Positions 32,293-53,318 of a DNA stretch of 64,000 bases are shown here, in pieces (within the stretch, counting starts at the first letter, position 1; each line of letters starts with the position of its first letter). The notes under the pieces were generated by a model, which saw only the letters and a list, made by a program, of their open reading frames with translations, searched no databases and was not told where the DNA came from. A program made the translations under genes and the position numbers. Source of the stretch: Gammaproteobacteria bacterium (GTDB lineage: Bacteria > Pseudomonadota > Gammaproteobacteria > CBDBNL01 > JAAOII01); the NCBI GenBank assembly GCA_965209035.1, contig OZ242372.1:32001-96000 (forward strand), read 5' to 3'.

Positions 32293-32313
32293 AGCCGTGC
32301 CGGTAATTGATGA

Positions 32314-33300: not shown

Positions 33301-34208
33301 TTGTTACCGGGCGTGTTGTTATTCTTGCTTTGCCGGATCTTGCGACGACATTTCTTTATTGCTTCCGGGTTTCCGTAATATTTTTTCAGTTTCTCCAATA
33401 ACAGGATGATCATCAGTAAAATCTCTATTTTTGTAATTTCTGTTTCCTCAGGGTGTGCGCCCTTATTTCCAACTTCCCGAATGTAATCATATGCTTCTTC
33501 ATAGCATTCCGGGCATGATTTTTTCAAGATATTGATCCTGTTAGATAATGACACTTTTTTGTTTTCCTTTTCCTTTACCTTTAGTCCGTAAAGATCCTCT
33601 AACATCGCTTCTAAGCAGACGCGAAGGCGCACTCCCCCTGTTGACGGATGTTGTGCACAGAGTTTATAAGCACTTTGCCAAATAGTAATAATTTTTTCTG
33701 GAATAAGTCCTGGCGTTTCTTTTGAATACTTATTAATATATTCTTCCACACATTTCTCTATACATTCCCCAACTATCTTTAAAGGTTCCGAAGGATCTTT
33801 TGTTATTACCGGATCTTTCGATGGAACAACGGGACTTGGTTTTCTCGGAATAGAAAGTACGGACAGGTTTATTCCCAAGATAACATGAGGATGCAGCCGG
33901 AAGGATACCAGCTTGTTAATCGCCGCCCTATTTGTCCCGTTCCCCATGTCTCCAAAATATTCATACTTTCCATTGCGAGAATATTCCTTGGCAATCTCTT
34001 TGAGCTTGTCAATATCTATGTTGTAAAGATCTAATATTACGCCTCCTTCTTCATTTTCCGCCCAATGGATGGCTATTTTGTCAATTCCATAAACATAAGA
34101 TTCGATCGTAATAATCGTATGCGGACTGCCGTTCTTACCGACGGTTCGCATCCATCTTATGAAATGAGTAGTTGATATTCGTGTGTTGAGCAGCTTTTCC
34201 ATAAACAA
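33297..34208 (-). CDS. DUF4145 (HEPN-like) domain protein with an additional N-terminal domain
   Basis: C-terminal LRVCLEAML...LSNRINIL...IREVGNKGAH (RxxGNxxxH); 4-nt overlap with the MTase start. Confidence 0.7.
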   Translation of the reverse strand: MFMEKLLNTRISTTHFIRWMRTVGKNGSPHTIITIESYVYGIDKIAIHWAENEEGGVILDLYNIDIDKLKEIAKEYSRNGKYEYFGDMGNGTNRAAINKLVSFRLHPHVILGINLSVLSIPRKPSPVVPSKDPVITKDPSEPLKIVGECIEKCVEEYINKYSKETPGLIPEKIITIWQSAYKLCAQHPSTGGVRLRVCLEAMLEDLYGLKVKEKENKKVSLSNRINILKKSCPECYEEAYDYIREVGNKGAHPEETEITKIEILLMIILLLEKLKKYYGNPEAIKKCRRKIRQSKNNNTPGNK

Positions 34209-34259
34209 TTTTAATCCTCGGTGTCGTTCATCGTTTTTTTGCTGCTAAACATCCAAACA

Positions 34260-35138
34260 TCAATACTCCATTTCGTGCCTTGATAAGTGTTGCGGCAATC
34301 CTATAATCTGCACATCAAACTTAAGGGAAGGTGTTACCTTGCTCTCTGCGTTGTGTATTCTAAAGGACATTTGCCAACCCTTATCAAAATAGTACATAAG
34401 CGTTGTTTTGGAAGATTGTGTATGCTGTGCTATAGTAGATGGAAGGGATAATTTTTTACCCCATTTAAGAGTGCGGTTGATATTGAAGGATTGAATGACC
34501 GCCTTGCCGTTCTCTTTCGCTACTTTGTAGAAGTCATAATACCCCAATAAATAATGCAGTAGGTTTTTCGGCACATTATCCTTATCCATAGCATAAATGC
34601 GTTGCATTTCCAAGTTGAAGGCGTGCAATATCGGCACATAAAATCGGTCCTCTTTATCGGGTATATCTCGCCATAATTGATTTCTCTTCTTTCGGCTGCG
34701 CATTTGTTCAAACAAAGGCACGACTGCATCCCAATATTCTTGCGATACATTATGCCCCAACCATTTTTTGCCAAAATCTATTTTGTCTGACAGTCGAGGA
34801 TTCTTAACTCCAAAATGTCTGTTTTTTGCCGATATTCCTATTTCTTCCCCGGGCGTTTCAATAATCAGGTCTCTTACATCCCCCTTGCCGCCCTCTTGGT
34901 CTGATTGCATTCTGACCGTGCAATGTTGTTGTTTTATTCTTGTGTCGTGTCCGATCAGAAAGATGACAATTTTCTCGGCGGCCTTCATGATCTTATCCCG
35001 CTCTGCATCACTACACCGGTTGAAATAAGAGCGACTATTTTCCAAATACCCGCTTTGCACCGGCGTGACCCCTGCTATCTTTTGCAGTTGGTATGCAATG
35101 CCGTACTCAAATCCCTTACCACTTTGTACTTGGCTCAA
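34260..35138 (-). CDS. HaeIII-family type II restriction endonuclease
   Basis: GKGFEY, QSDQEG..GDVRD, IGISAK..H...K.PRLS..IDFG..W, SFRIHNA.S...PSLKFDVQ. Confidence 0.8.
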   Translation of the reverse strand: MSQVQSGKGFEYGIAYQLQKIAGVTPVQSGYLENSRSYFNRCSDAERDKIMKAAEKIVIFLIGHDTRIKQQHCTVRMQSDQEGGKGDVRDLIIETPGEEIGISAKNRHFGVKNPRLSDKIDFGKKWLGHNVSQEYWDAVVPLFEQMRSRKKRNQLWRDIPDKEDRFYVPILHAFNLEMQRIYAMDKDNVPKNLLHYLLGYYDFYKVAKENGKAVIQSFNINRTLKWGKKLSLPSTIAQHTQSSKTTLMYYFDKGWQMSFRIHNAESKVTPSLKFDVQIIGLPQHLSRHEMEY

Positions 35139-36010
35139 GCGACCCTCTCCAAATCGTGAGACAGCACCACTATTTCGTTAGATTTTTTACTGTTCCCCAT
35201 TCCATATTTCCAGCCCGCCCTTAAGATTGGATAATCCTGATACCATTTTCTTATGGTAGGACAATCGTTATAGGATAGTATCCAGTTATCTCGTTGGTCC
35301 AGCAGTTCTTTTAGTGATTCGTGGTTGAACCCTGCGTGCGTATCTCCTTTCACCCCGTATAGTTTTTGCCCGTTAAGGTATGGCGGGTCAAGATAAAGAA
35401 AAGCATCCGGGTTATCGGCGATTGATTGCCGATAGTCCGCTTTCTTTACCGTAAAATTGTCTGTCGCAAACTCTCTTAGTTTCTCCATTGAACTTTGATT
35501 AAAACGGGGATGCCCTATGGACATACCGCCCGAGAGAGTAATCCCCGAAAATGACGACCGATTGAGCACATAAAATACCGCCGCCCGCTCTAAGGCATTT
35601 TCAAGCACGGGAAACCTTCGCTGCAAAGCATAGAATTGCGTTCTCTCCAACGGATGATATTCCTCTACCCTATCGGCCAGCTTATTGGGGTCATCTAACA
35701 GGCATTGCCAAAAGTCCACCAGCGGCGCAAATATATCATATCCCTTAACCTCCAGACCCGCCGCTACGCAAGCCAATTCAATGGAAGCCCCCCCTACAAA
35801 CGGGGAGCATACCACTTCAGTCTCATTCGGTATCAAAGGCAGTATCTGCGATACCGCTCTGCTTTTGCCACCCGGGTACCTCAAGGGAGAGCGCATATAT
35901 TGACCGGGTAGATCAACATCACCCACACAGGTATGCTGACGAATGGTTTGTACTCCGGCTTGATGTTCGAGATCTAAAATTTGTTGAGCGACCATAGTGT
36001 ATTTTGCCAA
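35135..36010 (-). CDS. Dam-family (alpha class, D12-type) N6-adenine DNA methyltransferase
   Basis: SPLRYPGGKS, SPFVGGASIE, NRSSFSG, YLDPPY, WILSYND; 4-nt overlap with the REase start. Confidence 0.9.
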   Translation of the reverse strand: MAKYTMVAQQILDLEHQAGVQTIRQHTCVGDVDLPGQYMRSPLRYPGGKSRAVSQILPLIPNETEVVCSPFVGGASIELACVAAGLEVKGYDIFAPLVDFWQCLLDDPNKLADRVEEYHPLERTQFYALQRRFPVLENALERAAVFYVLNRSSFSGITLSGGMSIGHPRFNQSSMEKLREFATDNFTVKKADYRQSIADNPDAFLYLDPPYLNGQKLYGVKGDTHAGFNHESLKELLDQRDNWILSYNDCPTIRKWYQDYPILRAGWKYGMGNSKKSNEIVVLSHDLERVA

Positions 36011-36086
36011 ACTATAATAATTTGTTCTATGTCTCTATTCTATTACGGCTTTAACAGAAAAAGGAAGTATTGCCATTCTCTACCAA

Positions 36087-36269
36087 TTATGGTTGAATGC
36101 CTGCTTGTCCAATAGAATTAGCATTTCTTTTTATGTCATCGATCTCACGTCTTACTTCGGATTCATTTGAACATACCTTTATTGCCGTGGCTACCGGTTG
36201 TCTTCCATTCATAAGCACCCAACGATAACCATCTTTAACCGGTTCTATAAGAAAATAATATTGCTGCAT
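36087..36269 (-). CDS. YegP/DUF1508-like small protein
   Basis: F.I...KDGYRWVL..G...VA.......ES....EI..IKRNA pattern. Confidence 0.6.
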   Translation of the reverse strand: MQQYYFLIEPVKDGYRWVLMNGRQPVATAIKVCSNESEVRREIDDIKRNANSIGQAGIQP

Positions 36270-36372
36270 AACTTGATTTATTTAATATGGTTAATTGTTA
36301 ATCTTTATTATAACTGGGTGCAACTAATAGATGTCAAACTTTTCTAAGATGATATTCCCCGCATCCGATACA

Positions 36373-36717
36373 TCATTTTCGGGTAGTTTCCCATTCGCGA
36401 AACTCAACGAAGCAGGTTATCGCTGCACTATATGTTCCGTGTCCCTTTCTTTCCTCGCCAATTTCTTCGTGTTCACCCCCTTTTTTGTATTTACAAGCGA
36501 TTTTCCTAAGTTGCTCTAAATCATTGATAAGGTATAAATCTGTAATTTTTGTTTCATGCTGAGACCAGTGTTTAGAAAGGATAAAAATTGACCTGGCATA
36601 ATCTTTAGCCGTCCCATTTGTGTAGTGTTCACCGTGTTTCCTTTTATTCCAGGCAATTGTTTTTAGATATTCTATAAACTTTCTGGCATGCTCGGTATCG
36701 TACTTGCTTGTCATCAA
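36373..36717 (-). CDS. Hypothetical protein, homologous to the N-terminal domain of 33297-34208
   Basis: Shared F..(Y/W)...T...Y...I..(L/I)..HW...E......DLY...D...L..IA..Y...G.....G....G.GT..AAI...V.FR. Confidence 0.65.
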   Translation of the reverse strand: MMTSKYDTEHARKFIEYLKTIAWNKRKHGEHYTNGTAKDYARSIFILSKHWSQHETKITDLYLINDLEQLRKIACKYKKGGEHEEIGEERKGHGTYSAAITCFVEFREWETTRK

Positions 36718-36925
36718 TATTGAAATCAGTGATTTGATAAATGCCGTGTTTCTTTCATTTGGTTATTTTACTATTTATGCTCCTTCTCACCGCCCCACTC
36801 TTACATCTATACTAGTATTGGTGCATAATTGCATAATCTCAAAACAGATCTACTTCACTTACAATAAGGCATTAAATATCAAAACTTAACTACTTATTTT
36901 AATTTTTACCAAAGGAGTATTTCAA

Positions 36926-37408
36926 ATGCAACAAGAAATAAAAGATTATGTCACGGCTCTGGCAAGTTTTCTTGTCAAGAACAAGAAAAAGATGTCTTAT
37001 AAAGATCTAATTCAACACTTACGATTTAATGATATTTTGGAGTATAAGGAACCGATAGGTATCGGTCAAGGAATTGCTTCACTTTACCGTGGATTAATTA
37101 AAGAAGGCAAGGAAAAGGAGGCCGGTAATGTCGCTCTGGCCTTTTGTGGGCATAACAAAAAATATGCTTGGGATAAGGACGACCCCAAGATGTCCTTATA
37201 TCAAAAACAAGAAGGAATATGTGCCGGTTGCAATAAATTTTTTGTGCCCGGTAATCTCAGCGTAGACCATATAGTCCCCAAAGCCAAAGGAGGCTCGGAA
37301 GATTCAAAAAATCTCCAACTTCTTTGCCGTAGTTGCAATAGCATTAAAGGGGACCGCACTATGGACTATCTAAAAGAACAGTTAACAGCCAAAGGCTACA
37401 ACAAATAA
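36926..37408 (+). CDS. HNH endonuclease with an N-terminal helical extension
   Basis: CAGC...VDHIVPKAKGG...NLQLLCRSCNSIKG; AAGGAG RBS. Confidence 0.88.
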   Translation: MQQEIKDYVTALASFLVKNKKKMSYKDLIQHLRFNDILEYKEPIGIGQGIASLYRGLIKEGKEKEAGNVALAFCGHNKKYAWDKDDPKMSLYQKQEGICAGCNKFFVPGNLSVDHIVPKAKGGSEDSKNLQLLCRSCNSIKGDRTMDYLKEQLTAKGYNK

Positions 37409-37493
37409 AAACTCTGTGAATAACATTAACCATAAGCGTCTCCCAACACCTCAAGTCTAAACATAGCACCAAGGAAAATATAATATCACAGCA

Positions 37494-38729
37494 ATGACAT
37501 CATATAAAGGACTGTATCATGAAGCACTTTCGCGACTGGAAGACCTTAATAAAAAAATAGCAGATTTTCAAGAAACACAACAAGCTTGGGATACTCAAAA
37601 AAATAAACTACAAGAAGAATTAGAAGATAGCAAACATCTATTTCAACAACAACTAGATAGTAACAAGAAACAATTTCAACAGGCACAAGAAAATTGGGAA
37701 TCTCAAAAAAACCAACTACAAAAAGCATTAGAGAATAACGAGAATAAATTTCAACAAAAATTAAAGAATGACGAGAAGCAATTTCAACAGACACAAAAAG
37801 GCTGGAAGAATAAACATAATCAATTTCAACAAGAATTAGAGGATAATGAGAAGCAATTTCAACAGACACAAAAAGACTGGAATAATAAACATAATCAATT
37901 TCAACAAGAATTAAAGGGTAACGAGAAGAAATTTCAACAGACACAAAAAGACTGGGAATCTCAAAAAACCCAACTTCAACAAGAATTAGAGGATAGCAAG
38001 AATCAATTTCAACAAGAATTAGAGAATAAATTACAACAGGCTAGCCAAGATTTAGGAGATAAAGAAAAAGAGATAGACACATTCTTTGGCAAGATGAATG
38101 ATTTCTATGAGGGCGAAGAAATCGGTGAAATTATGGAGGATGGAAAAAAGAAAAGAACCGGGGGAATGAGAGGCAAGGTTAGTCTACTTCAAAAAGAATT
38201 CGAGGAATTGGTAGCAGATCGAACAAAGGAAGCTTTGGCAAAAATATTCGAGGAGCAAGCCGAGAAACATAAAAAGCGTTCCGATGTTGCTACGCTGTGG
38301 TTCAATAGTTCAATTATCGGATTAGTAGGTTTACTATTGGTGATTATCTCAGTTTTTGTATTTACAGAATTAACTTTTAATCTTTCTCTTTATCCTTTAT
38401 TTTCGATCGTAACTTTTGCTTCCGGATATCTTTTATTCCGTCTTAATAAAACTATTTCCGAAGAAACTCGTTTATTCACCGAATATACACACAAGCATTC
38501 TTTGGCAAAGGCATATACGGGATATAAAAAAGAAGCGGAAGGGAACGAGGATTTGCGCCAAAAATTATTATCCGATTTGACCGATGCCATCGCCCAAAAC
38601 CCTGTTCGTCTCTTATCAATTATCCACTCAAAAGAAAAAAACCCGCATCAAGAATTCGTGGATGGTATAAAAAAGACTGCTAAGTCCGCCAAACGACAAG
38701 TGAAAATACCCGGAATGGATTCGGATTGA
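37494..38729 (+). CDS. Long Gln/Glu/Lys coiled-coil protein with two C-terminal TM helices
   Basis: 25-aa (14+11) repeats FQQTQK.W..KHNQFQQEL..NEKQ; two hydrophobic segments followed by EYTHK..LAKAY.GYK. Confidence 0.75.
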   Translation: MTSYKGLYHEALSRLEDLNKKIADFQETQQAWDTQKNKLQEELEDSKHLFQQQLDSNKKQFQQAQENWESQKNQLQKALENNENKFQQKLKNDEKQFQQTQKGWKNKHNQFQQELEDNEKQFQQTQKDWNNKHNQFQQELKGNEKKFQQTQKDWESQKTQLQQELEDSKNQFQQELENKLQQASQDLGDKEKEIDTFFGKMNDFYEGEEIGEIMEDGKKKRTGGMRGKVSLLQKEFEELVADRTKEALAKIFEEQAEKHKKRSDVATLWFNSSIIGLVGLLLVIISVFVFTELTFNLSLYPLFSIVTFASGYLLFRLNKTISEETRLFTEYTHKHSLAKAYTGYKKEAEGNEDLRQKLLSDLTDAIAQNPVRLLSIIHSKEKNPHQEFVDGIKKTAKSAKRQVKIPGMDSD

Positions 38730-38736
38730 TTAGGCG

Positions 38737-39411
38737 GTGACAAACAAAAAGTTAAAGTTGGAGAATATCCTATGGCATCGCAAGTATCCTCAGATCATTC
38801 CGTATATCGGCTCCAAATATAAAGAGAAACGATTGTTATTGATCCTTGAAAGTCATTTTCTACCTGATGAAAGTAAAATTCACTTGGATCCGAAAGCTTG
38901 GTATGAAGGCGATGAATCACTTTTGAGTGAGGAAGAAAAAGGGTGGATATACACCAAGAAAACTATGAGAGGTCATGCCCTTTCACAACCCCAAAATACG
39001 GCGATACCAAAAGTTTATAAAGCAATAGAAGAAACCCGGCTATTCTCAAACTCAGATACAGATAAGGAAGATCCTTTTCCGTATTTTGCTCTGATGAACT
39101 ATTTTGTAAGGCCTGCTATATGTGGCAAAGGAATGGAACGAAGTTATGATAAAGAAGAGATATGGAAACATGATGTTGAACCGGCTAACGAAAGGCTGGA
39201 AAAAGTCGTTGAGATTTTAAAGCCTAAGGGAGTTATCTTTTTATCCTGCTTTGCGTATGACTGTTGCAATGACAGTGGTGGAATCTCCAAACTGAAAACA
39301 AGAGTGGGAGAAGATAAAGTGAGCCGTCAGTATCATCCCAGTTCCAGGGACTGGGATACAAAAGAAAAAGAAGAGTTTCAGCAATGTTTGCGTTCTTTTT
39401 GGAATTTATAA
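38737..39411 (+). CDS. Uracil-DNA-glycosylase-like fold protein (tentative)
   Basis: PYIG..Y...LLLILESH, NY..RP, ILKP..VIFL, terminal HPSS motif. Confidence 0.5.
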   Translation: MTNKKLKLENILWHRKYPQIIPYIGSKYKEKRLLLILESHFLPDESKIHLDPKAWYEGDESLLSEEEKGWIYTKKTMRGHALSQPQNTAIPKVYKAIEETRLFSNSDTDKEDPFPYFALMNYFVRPAICGKGMERSYDKEEIWKHDVEPANERLEKVVEILKPKGVIFLSCFAYDCCNDSGGISKLKTRVGEDKVSRQYHPSSRDWDTKEKEEFQQCLRSFWNL

Positions 39412-39432
39412 AACCAGTAAAAAAATAAAGCT

Positions 39433-40362
39433 ATGAAAAAAATAATGTTATCTTTATTATCAGTGTTAACAGTATTATCATTACCACTATTACTATTAGT
39501 GTCTTGGCTGAATGTATTTCCTCTCTTAAGAATGATAAGTTTATTCTTCATAGCCACACTATTATTCGACAGCGATGAATTTTTTATAGTAGGACTAATA
39601 GCAATTTGGAGTTTCGTTCCTGCGTTCTGGTCTGTTACAAAAGGATATACTCTTTCCAGTGGTTGGTCTGTTGCATTTTTAATTACTTGTTTTTTTACCT
39701 TTATTGCCTTGAGTGTACATGACCCTTTTAGAAGTATTGCTTTATTTGTTGGTTTTCTTACTCCAATGATTATCAATTGGGTCTATCCAAATTATAATTC
39801 TGACCCTGTTAATAATTTTTTCTTGACAGATGAATCAAAGGAAAATATTTCTGCGGAAGTAAATGCAGGCATTATGATTAATATGCGACGCGGTGCTTAT
39901 CTTGGTCTCTGGGCTGGGTTAATGATTGGCTGGGGAATTCCTCTCTTTATATTTCTGTTGATTTCATGGTATTCACTTGATGAATTCGCTTATTATTACT
40001 ATGAGTATGAGGCTGTCGGTGCCTCTCTTATCCTTGCTCCCTTTGGCTTCGTGCTCTTTGGAGGTTTGCTCGGTGGTCTATTTCGCCCCCCTTTGGCTTG
40101 GTATGTGACTTGGATGACCGGGAGAATGCTGGGGGCACTTTTTATGTTTCTTATATTCTATAAGTTCCCTTCTTTGAAGCAAAGAGTGGCACTGGTTGGT
40201 GCGATTTCTGGTGTGATCTCTGGTGGGGTGCTGGCAGGGATTATCTCGCTGACAGAACAAGATGGTATCGGATATGTTTTTATCGTTATAATTTTCTGCT
40301 CGCTTCTAGGGTTTGCATTCGGGAAACTTACCGAATACATCGCTAAGCGTCGTGGTTGGTAG
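39433..40362 (+). CDS. Polytopic membrane protein of unknown function
   Basis: 309 aa, mostly hydrophobic with Gly-rich helices; closely spaced after the previous gene. Confidence 0.65.
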   Translation: MKKIMLSLLSVLTVLSLPLLLLVSWLNVFPLLRMISLFFIATLLFDSDEFFIVGLIAIWSFVPAFWSVTKGYTLSSGWSVAFLITCFFTFIALSVHDPFRSIALFVGFLTPMIINWVYPNYNSDPVNNFFLTDESKENISAEVNAGIMINMRRGAYLGLWAGLMIGWGIPLFIFLLISWYSLDEFAYYYYEYEAVGASLILAPFGFVLFGGLLGGLFRPPLAWYVTWMTGRMLGALFMFLIFYKFPSLKQRVALVGAISGVISGGVLAGIISLTEQDGIGYVFIVIIFCSLLGFAFGKLTEYIAKRRGW

Positions 40363-40470: not shown

Positions 40471-40866
40471 TTAATCCACTCTTGTTGCATTTGCAACAAG
40501 AAAGTCCCGGCACCGGACAAACCGCCCTCTGCGTATCCAATAATGGCATTGATATTTGCAGAAAGATTGCATACCCCGTATGGAAGGGTCTAAACTGATA
40601 GTTCCCTTTTTCCACCACCTATGGATCCTTAATCGCCAACGAGGATCCAAACTTGCGTGCACATCCACATAAATGATCTGCCGGCAATCGGCATACGGAC
40701 ATTTGTAGGCAACTTGAAAGGGTTCTCCCCGCTTACCGAGGAGATACATTTTATTTTGCTCCAACTTGGACGGCAAATCCGTCACCTCAACTGCTTCGTA
40801 ATAATGCCATCTTTGTTGTAAACGCTTTTTAAGTAATCCAAAAGATGCAATGATTTTACTAAGCAT
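40471..40866 (-). CDS. DUF6527-family protein (Cys/His, probably zinc-binding)
   Basis: YKCPYADC...PRW.L...GTISLDPSI.....C...CHYWIRRG..VRC; overlaps the E1 stop by 8 nt. Confidence 0.75.
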   Translation of the reverse strand: MLSKIIASFGLLKKRLQQRWHYYEAVEVTDLPSKLEQNKMYLLGKRGEPFQVAYKCPYADCRQIIYVDVHASLDPRWRLRIHRWWKKGTISLDPSIRGMQSFCKYQCHYWIRRGRFVRCRDFLVANATRVD

Positions 40867-42367
40867 AATTTAGCAGTTCGCTCTTGTCGCCCATCGCCCG
40901 ATATTTATCAAAGATCTCTTTTTTAGGAGAACAATTGGCGTGAGCATAGTAGCCGTTGGATAAACTGAATCTCTGAGATTCAAAATCTCTGTTGTCATCG
41001 AATCGAAACCTATGCAAGCGGGCTAAAAAATCATTGACCGCCATGCATGCTGCCTGCATATTCACCGAGATAACTGCCGGTTGATCCTCGTTCACAGCGG
41101 CTAAGTACCCGACCTTTCTTTGTTCCGCATAGTGTTTTCGATCGGTATGATAATAATCTTCGGCAGCCAGTTGTTCCGAAGTATAAACGCCGCGTGTTAG
41201 TAGCCCGGGACCTAAAGGGCTGACATAGTGGGCCGCCATGTCTATTCCCAGGATCTCTCCTTTTTTGTCACCTTCGCTGCTATCTCTAACATCCCCAATA
41301 TCACCACCGTCTCCAACCGCCCCGGCTTCCCCAACTTCCCCGACTTCTATGTGAACTCCGACATCAAAAAGTGGAATTGCATATGCCGAGGCAATCACAT
41401 CCAAGTGATATCGCCCTCTTACCGAATCCACACAACCGAACAGGACATCACAGGTTTTCAAACTGTCTTTTACCGCGGGTGATGTTGTTGTATCATTCAA
41501 TAATTCAACTTGGGTGCCCATACCCATTTCTTTAATTGCCCTGCCGATGACTTGCACTTTGGAGCGAGAGGCGGCGGCGTCTTTTTTGCCGCTGTTTAAT
41601 ATGCGGTTTAGATTTTTATCTTCTATCACATCATCATCTGCCAACACCAACTTGCCGATACAGTTTCTTGCCAAGAGTTCAATCACAATACTGCCGGTGC
41701 CGGAGCAGCCGACCACTCCTATTTTTAGTTGGCGTAAAACATCCAAGGTCCCTTTACCAAAAGTTTGTAAAATTCTCTTGGTAAATGCCGGCTCCTTGTT
41801 CCTGCCCTTGCTCCACTCTTTGTTACCTCTTTTCCAGAAAAACAGATCCTCGCCGCAGGCGGATACGGATTGAATGGGCACAAACCGCCGAGAATGAGTG
41901 ACAATACGCGCGATGATTTCACCTGTCGGCAGCATGATGGCGGAGCCTAACGGGCGTTTATCATCAAACCAGTGATTGGCGGACGCAAAGAACAATTTAT
42001 CGTTGGTATCATCCGTTGTTGAAAAATGCCGGAACCCGGACGGATGGCTGTGTATCGTCAAAAAAGAAAGACCTTGCTTGTCCATATCGGTTATTAGTTC
42101 GGGGGTGATTACATTCTTGGTTGCCCATTCAAGATAGGTGGCGTCGCGCTGAGTGGATTGAGCATACGGAACCAAGATGAGCGAATGTGTAACCAAGCGA
42201 CAGCAATCTTTGGCATCACCTCTGTGGCAGAGTAATATGGCGGCGGCTTCCGCCCCGTCTGCCGGTAGTAAATGCTTTTTTAAGTCCGTATGCTGTTTTT
42301 CATTTAGAACTAACTGATAAGTTTTAGTTGCTTTTGACATGTCTTCAAGATTGACCTTCTCGGTCAA
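40859..42367 (-). CDS. JAB/JAMM peptidase fused to a ThiF/E1-like adenylating enzyme
   Basis: N-terminal E...HSH-x7-S-x2-D (GAEAA...HSHPSGFRHFSTTD); ThiF GVVGCSGTGS, DDDVIEDKNLNR, GCVD, PAVISVN. Alternative start ATG 42340. Confidence 0.88.
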   Translation of the reverse strand: MTEKVNLEDMSKATKTYQLVLNEKQHTDLKKHLLPADGAEAAAILLCHRGDAKDCCRLVTHSLILVPYAQSTQRDATYLEWATKNVITPELITDMDKQGLSFLTIHSHPSGFRHFSTTDDTNDKLFFASANHWFDDKRPLGSAIMLPTGEIIARIVTHSRRFVPIQSVSACGEDLFFWKRGNKEWSKGRNKEPAFTKRILQTFGKGTLDVLRQLKIGVVGCSGTGSIVIELLARNCIGKLVLADDDVIEDKNLNRILNSGKKDAAASRSKVQVIGRAIKEMGMGTQVELLNDTTTSPAVKDSLKTCDVLFGCVDSVRGRYHLDVIASAYAIPLFDVGVHIEVGEVGEAGAVGDGGDIGDVRDSSEGDKKGEILGIDMAAHYVSPLGPGLLTRGVYTSEQLAAEDYYHTDRKHYAEQRKVGYLAAVNEDQPAVISVNMQAACMAVNDFLARLHRFRFDDNRDFESQRFSLSNGYYAHANCSPKKEIFDKYRAMGDKSELLNYA

Positions 42368-42755
42368 GAACTTCCTTCATATTGTTAATATGAGTTCCGA
42401 TATTATCAACGCCTGCTTGCCATGGATAATGCCGAGACCATCGCTGCCACTTTTTATTTAAATGTGTTTCTGATACTAAAGCGTTTATAGGCCGATTATT
42501 TGTTTTCCGGATGCCCGGGTAAAGATAAAACATATCCAAACGTGCTGTAGGATAGTTAGGCGGAATAATAAACATAAATTCCCTCGTGTTGTGTTGATCC
42601 GACAACTCCACGGGAAATGATAACCACTGATATCCATCAGGAATATCAAAATTCCGAATGATCAGATACGAATTACTTCCTTCGGAAACTAATTCCCAAG
42701 CATCCGGATAGTGGATATTAAGCCATTCCAGGTCTTCGGATGTTAACGGACTCAA
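42345..42755 (-). CDS. Prokaryotic E2/UBC-fold protein (E2 family E type), no cysteine
   Basis: LII..F.IP.GY, IP..YP...LDMFY.YP, WQRWSRH. Confidence 0.82.
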   Translation of the reverse strand: MSPLTSEDLEWLNIHYPDAWELVSEGSNSYLIIRNFDIPDGYQWLSFPVELSDQHNTREFMFIIPPNYPTARLDMFYLYPGIRKTNNRPINALVSETHLNKKWQRWSRHYPWQAGVDNIGTHINNMKEVLDREGQS

Positions 42756-42765
42756 ACTTAATTTC

Positions 42766-43071
42766 TTATCCCTGTTGTATCTGCGTTCGTATTGTTTCGA
42801 ATCTTTCCGGACAAGGATACTTAACCAGATCTACTCTATCTTCCGGGTTGATTCTATTGCGAGTTCCATCACTCAACTTTTCTTGTAAATAATACTCGTT
42901 AACTGGTCTGCGTGCTAAGGTCAGTATTTCCTTCCCTGTTATAGTAGGTTTTTCAACTTGATAGTATTTGCCATCTACTTTGATAATGTAAGCACGTCCA
43001 AAATACGGCTTCTTGCCTTCTTTCGCACATTCTTCGAGATTAATAATATCGTTTTTTTCTTGTTCTGTCAT
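42766..43071 (-). CDS. Multiubiquitin-family ubiquitin-like protein ending in Gly
   Basis: Y.IKVDG......PTITGKEIL.LA......Y.L..........I...D.VDL.....ERF; C-terminus TQIQQG. Confidence 0.85.
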   Translation of the reverse strand: MTEQEKNDIINLEECAKEGKKPYFGRAYIIKVDGKYYQVEKPTITGKEILTLARRPVNEYYLQEKLSDGTRNRINPEDRVDLVKYPCPERFETIRTQIQQG

Positions 43072-43073
43072 AA

Positions 43074-44450
43074 TTAATTAATGTCGTTCTTTAATGGTTT
43101 AAAAATCTTAGGATTATTCTTTCGCAGTTCTTTTACGTGATCAGCATCTAACCCTATAACATTATACAAACATTTTGCCTTTGCTAACTGTGCCAGTGTC
43201 AAATTCTGACACCCGGTAAAATCAGAGCCGGTAAAATCAGAATCACTTAAATCTGCCCCCTTAAAATTTGCATCTCTAATATTTAAAAAAGTGATGCGTA
43301 CTCCTTTCAATTTCGCTTTTACAAATCCTGCACCGGATAAATTTCCTCCGGAACTAATATTAATACCACTTAAATCTGCTTTGAAAAAATTTATGCCTGA
43401 CAGATCTGAAGGTAACTTGACTTTTTCCAAGTATACCTCAGACATATCAATTCCAAGAAGGGTTGCTGTGATAGTAACTTCTTTATTTTCGTCCCGTACT
43501 TTCTTGTTTTCTCTATACATTTGCATTATTGATTTAGGATCTATAGACGGCTTAAAAAAGAGATCAATAATCAATTGTTTTATTTCAATAGCATCATCTT
43601 TTGAAAATATTGGTATAGACTTAGACATAGATATCTTGTCATATCCAGCCCTTTCCATTGTTATCGATGAATTTTCAATAGTAATTTTTTTATTTTTATC
43701 CTCTGCTTTCTTATTTATTGATTTAAGGTCTATAGATGGCTTAAAAGAGAGGTTAATATCCCATGGTTTTATTTCAAAAATATCTTTTTTCGTTATCGGT
43801 GCATTTTCAAATGAATTTAATATCTTAATCACTAAACTCATAATAATTGAAGTGTAATCTTGTGGTTCGCGTATATGATTTTTAGTGTCTTCTCTATACT
43901 TGTCGTTCGTTTTATAGGCAAGATCACGCAACATGAATAATCCCGCCTGTTGGTCAATATTCTTTTCAGAAGATAATTTATCTATTGCCTTATCAAATAT
44001 ATCAGATTTGATAGTCGCCAACTGCGTTTGTGCCGTATGTCCTTGTGCTATAGTCCTTCTATTGAGAATTGTCAATCCCCAAACAACTACTACCCCGGAT
44101 AGCATATAACCCAAAGCCATTAGGCTATGCCACTTTTTACCTTTATTCTCTTTACCCTCATTCTCTGCTGCTCCCAGCATCATATCTATCCAGTCATTGG
44201 GGCTACTATCGCACCAAAGAACATCAGACAATGCACGCCAGAGGATTAAAAAAATGATAAAGAGTGCAAAAGAAAGCAACAACCGCAAAAACATATTTCG
44301 CAAAAACACACTTAATGTGTGCCACCACTCTTTAAATGTATGCCACCCTTTTTTTAATCTGTGCCACCACTCTTTAAATGTGTGCCACCCTTTTTTTAAT
44401 CTGTGCCACCACTCTTTAAATGTGTGCCACCCTTTTTTAATAGCCCTCAC
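43074..44450 (-). CDS. Membrane-anchored pentapeptide-repeat protein
   Basis: Two TM helices; F.KAI..L.S.......AG...L..LA helical domain; C-terminal A(D/N)LSG-type repeats ending GCQNLTLAQL. Confidence 0.8.
   Translation of the reverse strand: MRAIKKGWHTFKEWWHRLKKGWHTFKEWWHRLKKGWHTFKEWWHTLSVFLRNMFLRLLLSFALFIIFLILWRALSDVLWCDSSPNDWIDMMLGAAENEGKENKGKKWHSLMALGYMLSGVVVVWGLTILNRRTIAQGHTAQTQLATIKSDIFDKAIDKLSSEKNIDQQAGLFMLRDLAYKTNDKYREDTKNHIREPQDYTSIIMSLVIKILNSFENAPITKKDIFEIKPWDINLSFKPSIDLKSINKKAEDKNKKITIENSSITMERAGYDKISMSKSIPIFSKDDAIEIKQLIIDLFFKPSIDPKSIMQMYRENKKVRDENKEVTITATLLGIDMSEVYLEKVKLPSDLSGINFFKADLSGINISSGGNLSGAGFVKAKLKGVRITFLNIRDANFKGADLSDSDFTGSDFTGCQNLTLAQLAKAKCLYNVIGLDADHVKELRKNNPKIFKPLKNDIN
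44318..44441 (-). repeat. About three 42-bp tandem repeats encoding KKGWHTFKEWWH(R/T)L
   Basis: Visible in both the DNA and the translation at the 5' end of the pentapeptide-repeat gene. Confidence 0.9.
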
Positions 44451-44534: not shown

Positions 44535-45713
44535 TCACCCGTCCTCCAACAATTCTTCCGGCAGATCCCCCCGCATAAACCCCTCATAAGCATCCAGATC
44601 CGCAAAGTCAATCGCAAACAGGCCGTCCTCTAACTTGGTAATGCGGACGCTGTCGGTATTGGCTTTCAGTAGTTTGTCATAGGTCATCAGTTCCCGGTCT
44701 TTGAGATTAAATATGCCACGCAATAGCCACTTGGCGAGTGCATCGTTGGGGTTGGTCATCAGGGCTTTGCTGTTGTCTTGGCACATCTTGGCGTCGTAGA
44801 TCTCCCCTGTCGGCACCTTCAATCGAAAAGTGGTATCTCGGGGCGGGAAAAAGTCGCCGTATCTTTTGTGGATATCCCACGGCACCGGGATATAAACTTC
44901 GCCGGACTTTCGTTCTCGCCCGCGCGCATTCCATTGATTTAATCCGCTGTGTTGGGGGACATATTTTTCACCCCCTTTGATGACGGAGCGGGTGGAATAC
45001 AACGGCAAAATAACAAACGGCTCTTGCCGATAGGTTTTTTGGGGCTGAAGTTGGGCAAAACGCAACAACATTTCATAAGGGTCCTCAAGAATTTGTATAT
45101 CTATTTTGACAGCATCTGCGGGGATGTGAAAGGTCTTGAATAAAGTGCTTTTTGAAGGGTTGTAGTTATAGCGGTGCTTGCCGTCTTCAAACGAAACCCG
45201 TTTTGTATCTCTCGAAGTGGAATTTGAAGTGGGATTGTTTAATGTCAAAGAAGCGGTGTCTATCGGCTCGTATGTTTCGGAAAAAAGTAACAGATGCTTT
45301 TCCCGTCTTGCCACACAATGATAAAATCCTTGCCGGACGCCGTAAGTCCTGTTCGCCCATTCTATGCGGGCATTGCGATAGTCCGCCAGTGCCTTCACCA
45401 GCGTCATCCCTTGCATATCTCGCAAAGTGGTGCTGAGTTTGTTAAACTCGGCAACCTTTTCCGTTTTGTGCTCGCCCGGTGCCACAAAGGTTTTAATCCC
45501 TATGCCGGTGTTTCCCTTGATGGCGTCATATGCGCCGTCTTCTCTTGCCATGTTTTTTGCCGCAAAGGATTTGCAGGATACATTTTCCACCAATCGGTAA
45601 TAGAGCAGCGGGACCTTTGAGTCGCTGAACAACCGGGATAATGCGGATGACGCTCTCAGGTAATCGGCGTAAAGGCGAAATTCGTTGTTGTTATGATTTA
45701 AGAATTCTCGCAT
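44535..45713 (-). CDS. Type II restriction endonuclease (group usually annotated NgoFVII-family; PD-(D/E)xK-like N-domain, B3-like C-domain)
   Basis: LSRLFSDS.VP.LYYR..EN, YDA....GIGIKTF, KVAEFN; C-terminal SGLNQWNA.GR.R..GEVYIP, CQDNSKALMTNPN; overlaps the MTase stop. Confidence 0.72.
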   Translation of the reverse strand: MREFLNHNNNEFRLYADYLRASSALSRLFSDSKVPLLYYRLVENVSCKSFAAKNMAREDGAYDAIKGNTGIGIKTFVAPGEHKTEKVAEFNKLSTTLRDMQGMTLVKALADYRNARIEWANRTYGVRQGFYHCVARREKHLLLFSETYEPIDTASLTLNNPTSNSTSRDTKRVSFEDGKHRYNYNPSKSTLFKTFHIPADAVKIDIQILEDPYEMLLRFAQLQPQKTYRQEPFVILPLYSTRSVIKGGEKYVPQHSGLNQWNARGRERKSGEVYIPVPWDIHKRYGDFFPPRDTTFRLKVPTGEIYDAKMCQDNSKALMTNPNDALAKWLLRGIFNLKDRELMTYDKLLKANTDSVRITKLEDGLFAIDFADLDAYEGFMRGDLPEELLEDG

Positions 45714-46546
45714 ATACCCAGTTCCGCGGTTAATTCTTGTTTGATATGATTTATGCGCTCTTCACTTTGTTGGCAAAACTTTTTATTGAGTTCAAAACCT
45801 ATGTATCGTCTGCCGGTTTCCACGGCTGCAGCGGCGGTGGTTCCGCTGCCCATGAAGGGATCCAGGACAATATCGTTTTCCTTTGAGGTGGTTAGAACAA
45901 ACGGCCGAATCAATGACAAAGGATAAGATGCCTGATGGTCGCGGAAAGGTTCTATGCCGTTTTTGATGACATCCCGATGGTGTTGGTACTTCCGGGCGGT
46001 GTCCAAATCAAAATAGTATTTGGGGGACTTGACAAAATGAAAGAAGTGTTCGTACACGGGATAGCGTCTGTCCTTGGAATAGCTCGGAATCGGGTTTGGT
46101 TTTTCCCAGATGATCTTGTTGCGCAAGAGCCAGCCCTGCTCCTGCATCCCCATTGCCACCCTTTCCGGTAGCATCAAGAGTTGTTTGTGTTGCAGGTAAC
46201 GGCCGTCCGGTCGCACAATCTTATGCTCTTTATAGTGTTGGTCGGTTTTTCTGGCATATCGCCCTTTGTTGCGAACGAACCCTTTGGAGCCGAAGTAGAT
46301 GTCGCCGATATTCAAATAAAAGGACCCTTGCGGATGCAGGACACGCCGCAACTCGTCCATAAATTGAAGGAGATGTTTGACATAAGCCAGGGGATGTTCT
46401 TCCCGCCCGAGTGTTTCGTCCCCGTATACGCGACAACCGAAGTATGGCGGGCTGGTGATAATCAGGTTCACGAAGTCCTCCGGTAATTGAGAGGTCAATT
46501 CCAAAGAATCACCGCATATGATTTTATTGATCCATTTTTCAGTCAT
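45698..46546 (-). CDS. Beta-class DNA methyltransferase (SPPY, probably N4-cytosine)
   Basis: IICGDSL, ITSPPYF, IIWEKPNP.P, HQASYP, VLDPFMGSGTT, GFELN. ATG 46546 chosen as start. Confidence 0.9.
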   Translation of the reverse strand: MTEKWINKIICGDSLELTSQLPEDFVNLIITSPPYFGCRVYGDETLGREEHPLAYVKHLLQFMDELRRVLHPQGSFYLNIGDIYFGSKGFVRNKGRYARKTDQHYKEHKIVRPDGRYLQHKQLLMLPERVAMGMQEQGWLLRNKIIWEKPNPIPSYSKDRRYPVYEHFFHFVKSPKYYFDLDTARKYQHHRDVIKNGIEPFRDHQASYPLSLIRPFVLTTSKENDIVLDPFMGSGTTAAAAVETGRRYIGFELNKKFCQQSEERINHIKQELTAELGICENS

Positions 46547-46690
46547 AGTCTGCCCCGCCTTGCAAATGTTTTGTATCAATAAAAGAAATCGTTCAAATAA
46601 TATGTTTTTTAATATTTTATGATAGTTGGTGGCGGTAGAAACAGAAATGAGTAGGAAGTGACCGTCTGTGCCGGACTTTCCAATAGCATC

Positions 46691-46956: not shown

Positions 46957-48503
46957 GATGTTTAGAGCAAGAACTGGCTTGACAAAAGGAACAAAATGCC
47001 AATCAGAGGTTAATTGGATTAGATAAGATAGATAGTGTGACTTGCCTCAATCAATCTTTCTTGGATATGCTTTCAGGTTCGAGGATTTTCCATTTTTGTG
47101 TCCCGCCCCGAAGTATACACAGAGCAGAATAGCTTAAATTTTTTCATATTATCTGAGACATCAGTATTCGGTTTATTCACACAGAATTTTCTTTAAATAC
47201 TTATTCACGCCGCCACCCGTTCGATCGACGTCATACCCATTTTTTTCCCACAATTTAACTGTTTTATGATAGGAAATAAGGTTTTTTCTCACATCATCCT
47301 CAGTGATTTCAGAGGTACCGGAGACACCGAAGAATTTGGCAACATAATATAGTATTAACTTAAGAGTGGTCGTGTCTTTGTAATCACGCCAAGAATGTCT
47401 CTTATTAAAATACATTATCGAAGTATCTTTTAGCCCAACTAACACAGTGTCACCCTCACCTCTACCTGCTTGTTTTGAAAAATTAAGCAGATGGATGTCT
47501 ATTATCGGGAAAATTGCATGCAATTCTATAGGCGGGGTTAAAGACTTATTACTATTTATTGCGCGCCAAAGTCCTGAAATGAAGGTGGCCCCACCAGTGC
47601 CACGTGTCACCACGTTATCCACTAAATTTTCTCTTATCAATTCACTTAATGTTTTAGCTGCTTCGTGTTTTTCGTAGAAATTGCGGCGACTACTATCTGA
47701 ATCTCTAGTCCCCCATTTCCCCTGTTCAACACGTGCCTGGCTATCCTTAATATAATAAATAGTATGCGGCATCTCCTTTTTGGATCCCTTCCCTTTATTA
47801 CATAATGTGTAGAAGTTTTTAAATATTTTCTTGTTAATTTGAGTTGCCCCAAACTTTCTTTCCGCCCGTCGCCCGATATAAAAAATCCTCCGGCCACCTC
47901 CTCCTTTTACCTTATTATTAAGTTCTTCTATAAATTTTGCAATCCCTTCCTTATCATTACTCCATTTTTGCATTTTTCCTGTTCCTGGTGGCGGGACATG
48001 ATAAATATACCCGTCATTTTGTTCCTGTTTTTTAGTGGTCGACGACAGAATATCAATACCACGTTCCGACACAAAAATGATCGATGCCACAATACCAACA
48101 ATAGAAAAGACAGACACCAAGGTCAAAACTTTTCTCTTCATAACATATTTTAAAAATGTTTTCATGATAATATTTTTTATATTTTTATAGTAGATATAAT
48201 TTAATTTTTGGCTGAATTCAGCCAACCTTAAAAATTTAAGATTTCCTTATTTTAGCTTTTTTTTGCTAAAAATATCAATTTTTAGAAAAAATTTAGATAA
48301 TTTGTAAATTCGTTAAAATTTGTAATACTTTGGAAATACATATATTAACACCACTTTCTGTGCCTCTATTTCGCTGGCAAAGTTAAATAGATACTTCCTC
48401 AATAGCCTCTTGGTTCGCAATTTCAAATCACTGTCGGACACCTGGTCTTTCAGATGGGATGTTTAAAGCAAGAACTAGCTTGACAAAAAAGAATAAATGT
48501 CAA
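46957..48503. repeat. Repeat A: about 46-bp direct repeat at 46957-47002 and 48458-48503, downstream of two unrelated genes
   Basis: gatgttta[g/a]agcaagaact[g/a]gcttgacaaaa..gaa.aaatg[c/t]caa; the second copy contains a TTGACA...TGTCAA dyad. Confidence 0.75.
47173..48225 (-). CDS. Hypothetical basic protein with an N-terminal membrane anchor
   Basis: 350-aa ORF, one hydrophobic helix, no recognised motif; real start probably at MKTFLK or MKRKVL. Confidence 0.6.
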   Translation of the reverse strand: MAEFSQKLNYIYYKNIKNIIMKTFLKYVMKRKVLTLVSVFSIVGIVASIIFVSERGIDILSSTTKKQEQNDGYIYHVPPPGTGKMQKWSNDKEGIAKFIEELNNKVKGGGGRRIFYIGRRAERKFGATQINKKIFKNFYTLCNKGKGSKKEMPHTIYYIKDSQARVEQGKWGTRDSDSSRRNFYEKHEAAKTLSELIRENLVDNVVTRGTGGATFISGLWRAINSNKSLTPPIELHAIFPIIDIHLLNFSKQAGRGEGDTVLVGLKDTSIMYFNKRHSWRDYKDTTTLKLILYYVAKFFGVSGTSEITEDDVRKNLISYHKTVKLWEKNGYDVDRTGGGVNKYLKKILCE

Positions 48504-49768
48504 GCGGGGGTTGATTGATTGGATGTTGATTTATTGGGTTTCGGTTCGAAAGGAACTTCGCCGATAATTTCTCGCCAAACGCGGTCCCCATAACAGGGAT
48601 GCCATTCGTCGTGTAATCTATCCCTGGAATCCGGATTAATTGAAATACTATTCTTATACGAAAATTGCAAATTAGTGCTTTTACTAACGCAATTTATCAT
48701 CCACTCCAAAGTGATGTCGGAAAGACCGGAATGCACATATCCTCCCCCGATATCACTGTGAACACCGCGAAACCATTCTTGAGCGAATGTGCACTTCTGC
48801 TGCGGATCCGGCTTCTCCCAGAGAGTGGGCAAAAACGTACGCCTTCTTTCATCCAATGCTACTGCGTGAAAAGCGCATTTTACTTTCGGGCTCAATTTCA
48901 CATCGTGGAATTGATAAGTGCTTATGGCATCGATGATTTCGCGATCAATAAAACCAAAATTAATGGCAGAAATATCTATAGAAGATATATTCGGAATCCC
49001 CAAGCTACCGACCGTGTCCCAAACACCGATGCAGGCAATATCATCGATATCTATATTACTGGCAAAGTTCTTCACTTGGTTACGATAAGAATTCCAACTT
49101 TTTTTTAGTGCCTCTTCTTTGAATACCTCTTCTTTGAAGGTCGGAATCCCTTGCCTTGCCAATAAACCACCCAAACTTCGTACCGTATAGGCTCCTCGCG
49201 AAAAGCCAAACAAGTATATTTCATCTCCCAGTTCGTAATGCTCGGCAATCACCCGATAACAATCCATGATATTCTTATTCAAGCCAAAACCAAAAATACC
49301 AGTGTATTGATCATACATATGTGTCCTAACCCCGGCGTGATAAAATACGATTTGTTCCACACCATCACTGGCTTCCCCCAAAATACGCAATGGCCGGCGT
49401 ATTGCTCTTCTTCCACAGAGTGCCTGATATATCTTGGCGACATTTGTTTGTTCACATACCTCTTCATCGGGTCTATTCCAAGTGCCGTCAGCACAAACAA
49501 CAATTCTTTTCATTGAATTTCTCCTATCTTCAATATGTAATAAAACTTATTTTTTAATTATACTTATTTTTTGTTGAAAATAGCAGTTTTTAGAAAAATT
49601 AGATGATTCGTAAATTCGCTAATATTTGTAATATTTTGGAAATACATATATTAACATCACTTTCTGTGCCGCTATTTCGCCGGCACAATAAACCAGGCAC
49701 TTCCTCAATAGCTTCTTGCTCTTGGTTCGCAATTCCAAATCACTGTCGGACACTCGGTCTTTCGGATG
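48259..49768. repeat. Repeat B: about 200-bp non-coding direct repeat at about 48259-48456 and 49567-49768, upstream of two unrelated genes
   Basis: Shared tttggaaatacatatattaaca.cactttctgtgcc.ctatttcgc...cttcctcaatagc...tcttggttcgcaatt.caaatcactgtcggacac..ggtctttc.gatg. Confidence 0.88.
48500..49513 (-). CDS. DUF2235 (Tle1-like) alpha/beta hydrolase
   Basis: KRIVVCADGTWN, TNVAK, GFSRGAYTVR, GVWDTVGSLG, HAVALDERR, WFRGVHSDIGGGY. Confidence 0.9.
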   Translation of the reverse strand: MKRIVVCADGTWNRPDEEVCEQTNVAKIYQALCGRRAIRRPLRILGEASDGVEQIVFYHAGVRTHMYDQYTGIFGFGLNKNIMDCYRVIAEHYELGDEIYLFGFSRGAYTVRSLGGLLARQGIPTFKEEVFKEEALKKSWNSYRNQVKNFASNIDIDDIACIGVWDTVGSLGIPNISSIDISAINFGFIDREIIDAISTYQFHDVKLSPKVKCAFHAVALDERRRTFLPTLWEKPDPQQKCTFAQEWFRGVHSDIGGGYVHSGLSDITLEWMINCVSKSTNLQFSYKNSISINPDSRDRLHDEWHPCYGDRVWREIIGEVPFEPKPNKSTSNQSTPA

Positions 49769-49876
49769 CTTGGACAGTGCCTTACCGATATTCCGGATCG
49801 CCTTGCCCTCAAATATTTCAACGGCAATTCTATTGCACCGATCGAGACGACTTAAGTTTTAGTCTTTTATGTTTTG

Positions 49877-51652: not shown

Positions 51653-51797
51653 GATCGATCTTGTTGGTAAACTCTTGGTGGGTAGTGTTGTGGTGAATAA
51701 CGAACTCGGTTAGTCCCTCGCTATTTCTTGCTCCTTTATATTTATATCTCTTTCTTCGCCTTTCGTATTCACTGCATGTTTTATCAAATGTTTTTTG

Positions 51798-53192: not shown

Positions 53193-53318
53193 GATTAATG
53201 TTCTTGGTAACAACTTGGTTGTGTTAGTGGTGAATAACACACTTGGTTAGTCCCTTGCTTTCCCCATTGTTTAAATTTTTGTCGAACATGTTTTATTATA
53301 CTTTTTAAGTTTTAGTAT

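Follow-up and report, generated by a model that had tools for sequence, protein, structure and literature searches.

A probable intact Type I Bub ubiquitination-like operon with separate Ubl and E2 genes in a restriction-rich genomic island of a gammaproteobacterium

The 64,000-nucleotide stretch of gammaproteobacterial DNA analyzed here (contig OZ242372.1, positions 32,001-96,000; hereinafter the window, to which all coordinates refer) contains a four-gene operon that is, with high probability, an intact Type I Bub (bacterial ubiquitination-like; formerly 6E.1 or DUF6527) system in the unfused arrangement bubA-bubB-bubCD-bubE, located on a horizontally acquired, restriction-rich island. All four genes are on the minus strand: bubA, which encodes the ubiquitin-like protein (Ubl), at 42766-43071 (101 amino acids, with the C-terminus ...QIQQG followed by a TAA stop codon); bubB, which encodes the E2-like protein, at 42345-42755 (136 amino acids, TTG start); bubCD, which encodes a JAB-E1 fusion, at 40859-42367 (502 amino acids); and bubE, which encodes a DUF6527 protein, at 40471-40866 (131 amino acids). 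The stop codon of bubA and the start of bubB, which are in different frames, are separated by 10 nt, bubB and bubCD overlap by 23 nt, and bubCD and bubE by 8 nt. The four packed, co-oriented genes described in the initial annotation, which was produced from the sequence and its open reading frames (ORFs) alone, are borne out by the ORF list, and the genes are real, intact and tightly coupled. The hidden Markov model search proposed at that stage has been run, and the matches to Multi_ubiq, Prok-E2_E, Prok-JAB, ThiF and DUF6527 all score above the curated Pfam cut-offs. A fifth co-oriented gene (43074-44450, minus strand), which is absent from the initial annotation, ends 2 nt ahead of the ATG codon of bubA. 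A scan for promoters and terminators yielded counts close to the shuffled expectation (18 vs 14.1 and 11 vs 7.6), and nothing was inferred from it.

BubA matches the Pfam family Multi_ubiq (7e-9) and the multi-ubiquitin protein structure 9cd2 in the PDB (1.7e-6). From a 51-row alignment, AlphaFold2 produced a model with a mean pLDDT (predicted local distance difference test score) of 90.8, and the nine best Foldseek matches of this model (E <= 1.8e-4) are all bacterial multi-ubiquitin or BubA structures, the top matches including 8u38, 9cd2, 9d5b and Citrobacter BubA 9ea8_B, with ubiquitin and NEDD8 ranking lower. Judging by this model, BubA is a free-standing Ubl with one predicted beta-grasp domain. 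As the initial annotation had noted, the protein ends in glycine: Gly101 is its last residue, directly followed by the stop codon, and is invariant across the 51-row alignment. The C-terminal pattern ...ERFET...QQG is the motif that precedes the cleavage junction in fused BubAB proteins.

BubB matches Pfam Prok-E2_E (2.1e-24) and the solved Citrobacter BubB (PDB 9eae_C, 1e-11), with the QRWSRH and LDMFY motifs aligned. The beta-grasp and UBC folds on which the initial annotation had made its reading depend are thus both predicted, the former by the BubA model and the latter by homology of the BubB sequence to a solved BubB. BubB contains no cysteine at all and carries Asp74, Ser107 and His109. 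Stand-alone E2s (at most 170 amino acids) account for 69 of the best 150 among 417 cluster-representative matches to the window E2; in an alignment of the window protein with 41 sequences picked from these 69 short representatives, Ser107 and His109 are invariant in all 42 proteins and Asp74 is at least 90% conserved.

BubCD aligns with Citrobacter BubCD (PDB 9ea4_A) over residues 13-476 with E = 6.3e-69. The same structure, together with the Pfam matches to Prok-JAB (1.8e-5) and ThiF (2.4e-25), delineates a JAB/JAMM peptidase domain (residues ~13-180; 41828-42331, minus strand) followed by an E1 adenylation domain (residues ~196-476; 40940-41782, minus strand). The intact JAMM motif HSH-x7-S-x2-D fused to a ThiF/E1 domain, which had been recognized previously, is indeed present as H106-S107-H108, seven residues, S116, two residues and D119, with Glu40 upstream, and there is no cysteine between residues 312 and 441, that is, in the E1 crossover region. 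The relatives compared throughout this work are 80 loci from species genomes (L003-L082), found with an E2 alignment, and 80 metagenomic loci, found with a BubCD alignment and hence blind to the layout of the Ubl and E2 genes. In an alignment of the window BubCD with those of the 150 out of these 160 loci that have a BubCD frame of at least 440 amino acids (ten truncated ones were left out), E40, H106, H108, S116, D119, R255 and Y421 are identical in all 151 proteins. At 41313-41347, TRF detected an 18/9-bp in-frame tandem repeat; it codes for part of an insert (residues ~342-365), rich in Gly, Glu, Val and Asp, that occupies a loop of the E1 domain.

BubE matches Pfam DUF6527 (5.1e-10) and has a short hydrophobic N-terminus. 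A BubE frame of at least 100 amino acids is present in 71 of the 80 genome loci; in these proteins and that of the window, S95, H108, C56 and C103 are conserved in 72/72 sequences, C61 in 71/72 and C107 in 69/72. According to the preprint of Ye, Gong, Chambers and Corbett (bioRxiv 10.1101/2024.11.21.623953), Citrobacter BubE, with S92, H102 and four cysteines, is a Ser-His peptidase that removes BubA conjugates. By analogy, the window BubE is a predicted Ser-His peptidase with a C4 zinc site, and the initial annotation, which left the role of DUF6527 open and considered an E3-like adaptor, has to be revised in favor of the deconjugating protease described in that text.

The prototype for this comparison is the BubAB-BubCD-BubE operon of Citrobacter sp. 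RHBSTW-00271 (Ye et al.), with PDB structures 9ea4, 9ea8, 9eae and 9eav. As described in the preprint, the Ubl is adenylated by the E1, which bears it on a tyrosine of the crossover loop, Y370; in the E2, which lacks cysteine, the Ubl is attached to a serine, S333, alongside H335 and D299; and the JAB domain (E28, H91, H93, D104) cleaves the Ubl-E2 precursor behind a conserved glycine. The residues listed there as mutated (E28, D104, R227 and Y370 of BubCD; S333 and H335 of BubB; S92 and H102 of BubE) all have counterparts in the window proteins that are invariant or nearly so among the relatives, and the same is true of every residue reported as essential, which bears out the initial identification of a complete DUF6527-associated, Bub-type conjugation operon. 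If the window proteins work as their Citrobacter homologs do, the E1 half of BubCD would adenylate Gly101 of BubA, using ATP/Mg and Arg255, and would take BubA onto the crossover-loop residue Tyr421 as an oxyester. BubA would then pass to Ser107 of the cysteine-free BubB, aided by His109 and Asp74, and BubB would transfer it to lysines of target proteins; BubE, with its putative Ser95-His108 dyad, C4 zinc site and hydrophobic N-terminus, would cleave the conjugates and so restrain the system. The working conjugation pathway that had been proposed from the sequence is supported in so far as all essential residues are present, but the predicted chemistry is one of tyrosine and serine oxyesters rather than of thioesters.

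The separation of the Ubl and E2 genes requires comment, given that the text of Ye et al. defines Type I by a Ubl-E2 fusion. In Table S1 of the same work, the 139 Type I rows comprise 106 marked "Ub+E2 fusion", 2 marked "Ub missing" and 31 with separate Ubl and E2 accessions. Since the authors' own table counts these 31 unfused operons among its Type I entries, the fusion is not truly defining for this type. Among the relatives, the Ubl gene is split from the E2 gene in 58 of the 80 genome loci (7 with a Gly-ended Ubl and 51 with a tail of 1-17 residues, the remaining 22 being fused and none cut by contig ends) and in 46 of the 64 classifiable metagenomic loci (36 Gly-ended and 10 tailed, vs 18 fused, with 16 further loci cut by contig ends), that is, in 104 of 144 loci altogether; the Gly-ended split layout is found in 44 of 161 loci counting the window. 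A quickly computed maximum-likelihood tree with 75 BubCDs requires at least five changes between the fused and the split state. The unfused layout is catalogued and common, not new. Two other readings of the split were considered and rejected, namely, an undescribed unfused variant, given the 31 unfused rows of Table S1 and a four-gene plasmid copy (NZ_CP069372.1), and a frameshift or assembly error, given that the stop codon directly follows Gly101 and that the Gly-ended split recurs in 43 of the 160 related loci.

Because BubA is made with a terminal glycine, the JAB domain is not needed for its maturation, as the initial annotation had pointed out, and the comparison with the relatives adds to this argument. 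In all 42 related Gly-ended operons with a full BubCD, all JAB catalytic residues are retained, and the ratio of mean pairwise identity of the JAB domain to that of the E1 domain is 0.82 in Gly-ended operons, compared with 0.76 in tailed and 0.76 in fused ones; this argument is comparative and crude, since the related sequences are non-independent, and a purely structural role of the JAB domain is also compatible with it. Given that neither the active site nor the overall conservation of the domain is diminished in Gly-ended operons, a second substrate can be argued for, and the JAB domain of these operons probably does more than maturation, acting, for example, on conjugates, BubA chains or BubA-BubB adducts. 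Ye et al. suggest in their text that the BubCD JAB acts "primarily or solely" in precursor cleavage, and the constraint seen here argues against "solely". A strong deconjugase activity is disfavored by the robust conjugation that the preprint describes with the wild-type JAB. The 43 operons with a Ubl born with its terminal glycine and a full BubCD (window included) represent a natural experiment on the role of this domain.

The operon is embedded in a ~23-kb stretch (positions ~30-53 kb) with a GC content of 0.35-0.46, compared with ~0.5 in the flanks, and this stretch encodes an HNH nuclease, a DUF2235/Tle1-like hydrolase and no fewer than three restriction-modification pairs. On one side, a type II pair, context rather than part of the Bub operon, consists of an NgoFVII-like restriction endonuclease (REase; 44535-45713) and an N6/N4 methyltransferase (MTase; 45698-46579), both on the minus strand and assigned with Pfam and PADLOC (REase_II 8.7e-114, MTase_II 3e-72); on the other side (31483-37408), Pfam and PADLOC identify a HaeIII-type REase, a D12 MTase, a Bpu10I-type REase with its MTase and the HNH gene. 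The placement among restriction-modification genes claimed originally is therefore confirmed on both sides of the operon. A search for Prok-E2_E in 40 genomes related to the host, ranging from members of its family to members of its class and including 37 that are at least 90% complete, gave no match. The nearest genomes available for synteny analysis are distant (a lysyl-tRNA synthetase-like gene is 52-61% identical), and the right-flank gene had no match in three of the four genomes searched and a weak one (E = 7e-4) in the fourth; the borders of the island are accordingly placed by GC content and gene content. Homologs of BubCD are present on 139 plasmid records, 66 of these predicted to be conjugative, and a tblastn search against phage records gave partial ThiF-fold matches only, in 4 Listeria phage records. 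The low GC content, the restriction-modification systems, the absence from 40 relatives and the plasmid-borne homologs together make horizontal acquisition into a defense-type island a well-supported interpretation of the sequence data. No close relatives of the operon were found by a metagenome scan with a single protein or by a viral-contig scan with an alignment. The 80 nearest species-genome relatives by E2 are all metagenome-assembled genomes, from at least 10 phyla, and several bear sponge-suggestive names (Poriferihabitans, Spongiihabitans, Porisulfidus, Tethybacter), which suggests that the genes spread briskly by horizontal transfer within one habitat; for the habitat, the names are the only basis.

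Several other features of the island and of the related loci were recorded. Four co-oriented genes on the plus strand (36926-40362) converge on bubE and may constitute another defense-type cassette; they encode a 160-amino acid HNH nuclease, a 411-amino acid coiled-coil protein with C-terminal hydrophobic segments and weak matches to DUF6161 and to ZorA/JetC coiled coils, and a 224-amino acid protein and a 309-amino acid polytopic membrane protein, both without a family match. At the low-GC end of the island (47173-53240, minus strand), the gene for the DUF2235/T6SS Tle1-like hydrolase (48500-49513; Pfam 7.3e-72) adjoins a gene for a 350-amino acid protein without an assigned family and two long genes with tetratricopeptide repeats. 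In 51 of the 80 genome loci (e.g., L004:8015-9727), a gene for an AAA_15/AAA_21 (ABC/OLD-type) ATPase of ~560-660 amino acids, in the same orientation as bubE, comes after it or overlaps its end (assignment by Pfam run on 2 of the 51); this gene is missing from the window. Another 19 genome loci have a 430-470-amino acid AAA_15 ATPase and a small unassigned gene just upstream of the Ubl gene.

The gene at 43074-44450, at the head of the operon, encodes a 458-amino acid pentapeptide-repeat protein (Pfam Pentapeptide, 8.4e-12) with hydrophobic helices predicted by hydropathy at residues ~46-81 and 109-130, a middle region and C-terminal repeats, and is a possible fifth gene of the unit. A 42-bp x 3 tandem repeat (44312-44438; TRF, 97% matches, score 240) encodes three copies of a 14-residue motif, KKGWHTFKEWWHRL, at the N-terminus of the protein; a repeat of the KKGWHTFKEWWHRL type is not present in the homologs from L003, L039, L081 and L099. 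A search of the ESM Atlas with the pentapeptide protein retrieved generic pentapeptide clusters only, and none of the papers listed for pentapeptide repeats in anti-phage defense ties such proteins to Bub, a point on which journal versions of the Bub work may say more. Head genes of other kinds occur elsewhere. A subtilase (Peptidase_S8; ~745 amino acids in most) is encoded directly upstream of the Ubl gene, on the same strand, in ten metagenomic loci, all with a free Gly-ended Ubl (L097, L098, L108, L116, L119, L120, L126, L129, L140 and L158; assigned by Pfam in five and by phmmer in all ten); a SAVED-domain protein is encoded at the head of L101 and an ORF of equal length lies at that of L102; and further relatives have divergent CapP/CapH-like or sigma-70 genes in this place.

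Whether the pentapeptide gene belongs to the Bub operon has to be weighed separately from the nature of the operon itself. The reading that we slightly prefer is that it does not, being either an independent accessory of the defense island or a part of the upstream restriction system that abuts bubA by chance: the co-oriented REase/MTase pair ends 84 nt upstream of it; the L003 genome has a paralog (L178:6577-9626) immediately after an N6/N4 DNA methylase gene and a DUF6996/DUF6997 pair, and no Bub genes close by, such that membrane pentapeptide proteins of this family may generally accompany restriction or defense genes; and the gene is missing from L034, which has a Gly-ended Ubl and clusters with L003 and L039 in the BubCD tree, and was detected in only 7 of the 161 loci, in two of these not adjacent to the Ubl gene. 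Set against this are the 2-nt gap to bubA and the finding that in L003, L039, L083 and L099, whose BubCDs are only 48-50% identical to that of the window, the Ubl gene is abutted or overlapped by a homolog of the same layout that retains the conserved C-terminal tail; in L039, moreover, the pentapeptide gene is the first in the co-directional unit, with only opposite-strand genes upstream. On this sequence evidence, a functional link of the pentapeptide protein to Bub is the less probable, although by no means negligible, option. The broader scheme that could follow is tentative and, taken as a whole, rather unlikely: Bub cores would plug into interchangeable head genes supplying what the pathway acts on or through, with the pentapeptide protein (a DNA-mimic-type beta-helix) as a dedicated target or a membrane-tethered sensor or effector, in keeping with the membrane association proposed for BubE, and the JAB as an editing deconjugase, not a maturase, in Gly-ended operons. 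Tightly coupled head genes, such as that of the pentapeptide membrane protein here and that of the subtilase elsewhere, are testable candidates for what Bub acts on.

With regard to the operon proper, the identity of the machinery and its biological role carry different degrees of confidence. Several points weigh against the interpretation as an intact, defense-related Bub system: the Prok-JAB match passes the curated cut-off narrowly (25.1 bits vs 25); the ~24-residue insert of BubCD is missing from Citrobacter BubCD and from the related loci, the alignments breaking at residues 341/365; the BubCD branch in the tree of 75 proteins is long (0.77), with an unresolved position; the preprint text of Ye et al. 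states that phage protection was not found for any Bub operon in E. coli; a June 2026 paper of the same group likewise describes Bub phage protection as not demonstrated and suggests global stress responses; and none of the DNA-damage regulators that both texts describe as driving many Bub operons (CapH/CapP, CapW, CapK/CapS) was seen among the scanned window neighbors. The last-mentioned reports, and the control of many Bub operons by DNA-damage regulators, lend weight to the possibility that the same machinery performs general stress-related or housekeeping protein modification and that its place among restriction genes only reflects the accumulation of mobile DNA. This is a serious alternative, albeit not the one we prefer, because the window copy has restriction systems on both sides and lies on low-GC DNA that 40 relatives lack, related loci often neighbor AAA_15/AAA_21 ATPases, GmrSD, Type III-like res/mod genes and SAVED proteins, and Bub homologs are frequent on plasmids. 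The claim of the initial annotation that the operon is probably defensive is accordingly retained in part: the restriction-modification and low-GC context is real, but it is context alone, and the published texts give no phage protection by Bub. An anti-phage role of the window operon is plausible from this setting, and the biological output is most likely either defense or stress response. That these genes are a relic, decayed or without catalytic activity, as the missing E2 cysteine was read by earlier bioinformatics, is a very improbable alternative; the cysteine-free E2, the repeat-derived E1 insert and the long branch would be in line with it, but all four frames are open and tightly coupled, every residue essential in Citrobacter is present and invariant in relatives, and cysteine-free chemistry is the published mechanism. 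The least credible alternative by far is a cysteine-based conjugation system of the Bil (bacterial ISG15-like) or CBASS (cyclic oligonucleotide-based antiphage signaling system) Cap2/Cap3 type, or a ThiF/MoeB sulfur-carrier pathway. In its favor are NCBIfam ThiF/MoeB matches and weak PADLOC matches to E1-E2 (Cap2-type) models, which cover only the adenylation fold (BubCD residues 196-345, best 1.3e-9); against it, the best NCBIfam score is 65.8 bits compared with a cut-off of 275, an E2-E1 fusion and a catalytic cysteine are missing, no CD-NTase was found among the scanned neighbors, and the matches to the solved Bub proteins are strong and full-length.

The favored assignment to Type I Bub can be restated through comparison with the known systems; given that the family, the chemistry and the gene layout are already in print and reached by routine annotation, the sequence itself adds little, and what deserves to be carried forward is the constraint on the JAB in Gly-ended operons and the pattern of head genes. 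The window operon shares with Bil systems the presence of a Ubl, an E2, a JAB and an E1 within one operon. As outlined by Ye et al., Bil Types I and II have a separate JAB gene, an E1 with an inactive and an active adenylation domain in tandem and a mobile catalytic-cysteine domain, and a cysteine E2, and are the only Ubl-encoding relatives with shown anti-phage activity; none of the separate JAB, tandem adenylation domains, cysteine domain and cysteine E2 is present in the window. With Type II Bub (6E.2: BubA, BubBD, BubE), the window operon has in common the free-standing Ubl, the DUF6527 protease and, prospectively, the oxyester chemistry. Unlike Type II, which in the description of the same authors has an E2-E1 fusion, typically no JAB, and Lys and His beside the E2 serine, the window system has a free E2 of 136 amino acids with His and Asp and a JAB fused to the E1.

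The agreement with Type I, in contrast, extends to all four proteins. As in the Citrobacter system, the JAB is fused N-terminally to a single-domain, homodimer-type, cysteine-free E1, with the same peptidase residues, Arg finger and crossover tyrosine; the Prok-E2_E protein has Asp, Ser and His without a catalytic cysteine; the Multi_ubiq-type beta-grasp Ubl has the conserved glycine, which is C-terminal here and junctional in fused proteins; and the DUF6527 protein combines a Ser-His dyad with a four-cysteine zinc site. The window operon differs from the prototype in that its Ubl consists of one beta-grasp domain instead of three, in that the Ubl and E2 are encoded by separate ORFs rather than as a BubAB fusion released by the JAB, the Ubl stopping at glycine such that no JAB cleavage is needed, and in the pentapeptide-repeat membrane gene at its head, the word "pentapeptide" not appearing in Table S1. 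The closest counterpart in layout is the Neotabrizicola shimadae plasmid NZ_CP069372.1, where the genes follow in the same order, with products of 119/136/473/131 amino acids compared with 101/136/502/131 in the window, annotated as multiubiquitin domain protein, E2-UBC family protein, ThiF family adenylyltransferase and DUF6527 family protein; this copy has a divergent XRE-family regulator and no pentapeptide gene, and its BubCD is ~40% identical to that of the window.

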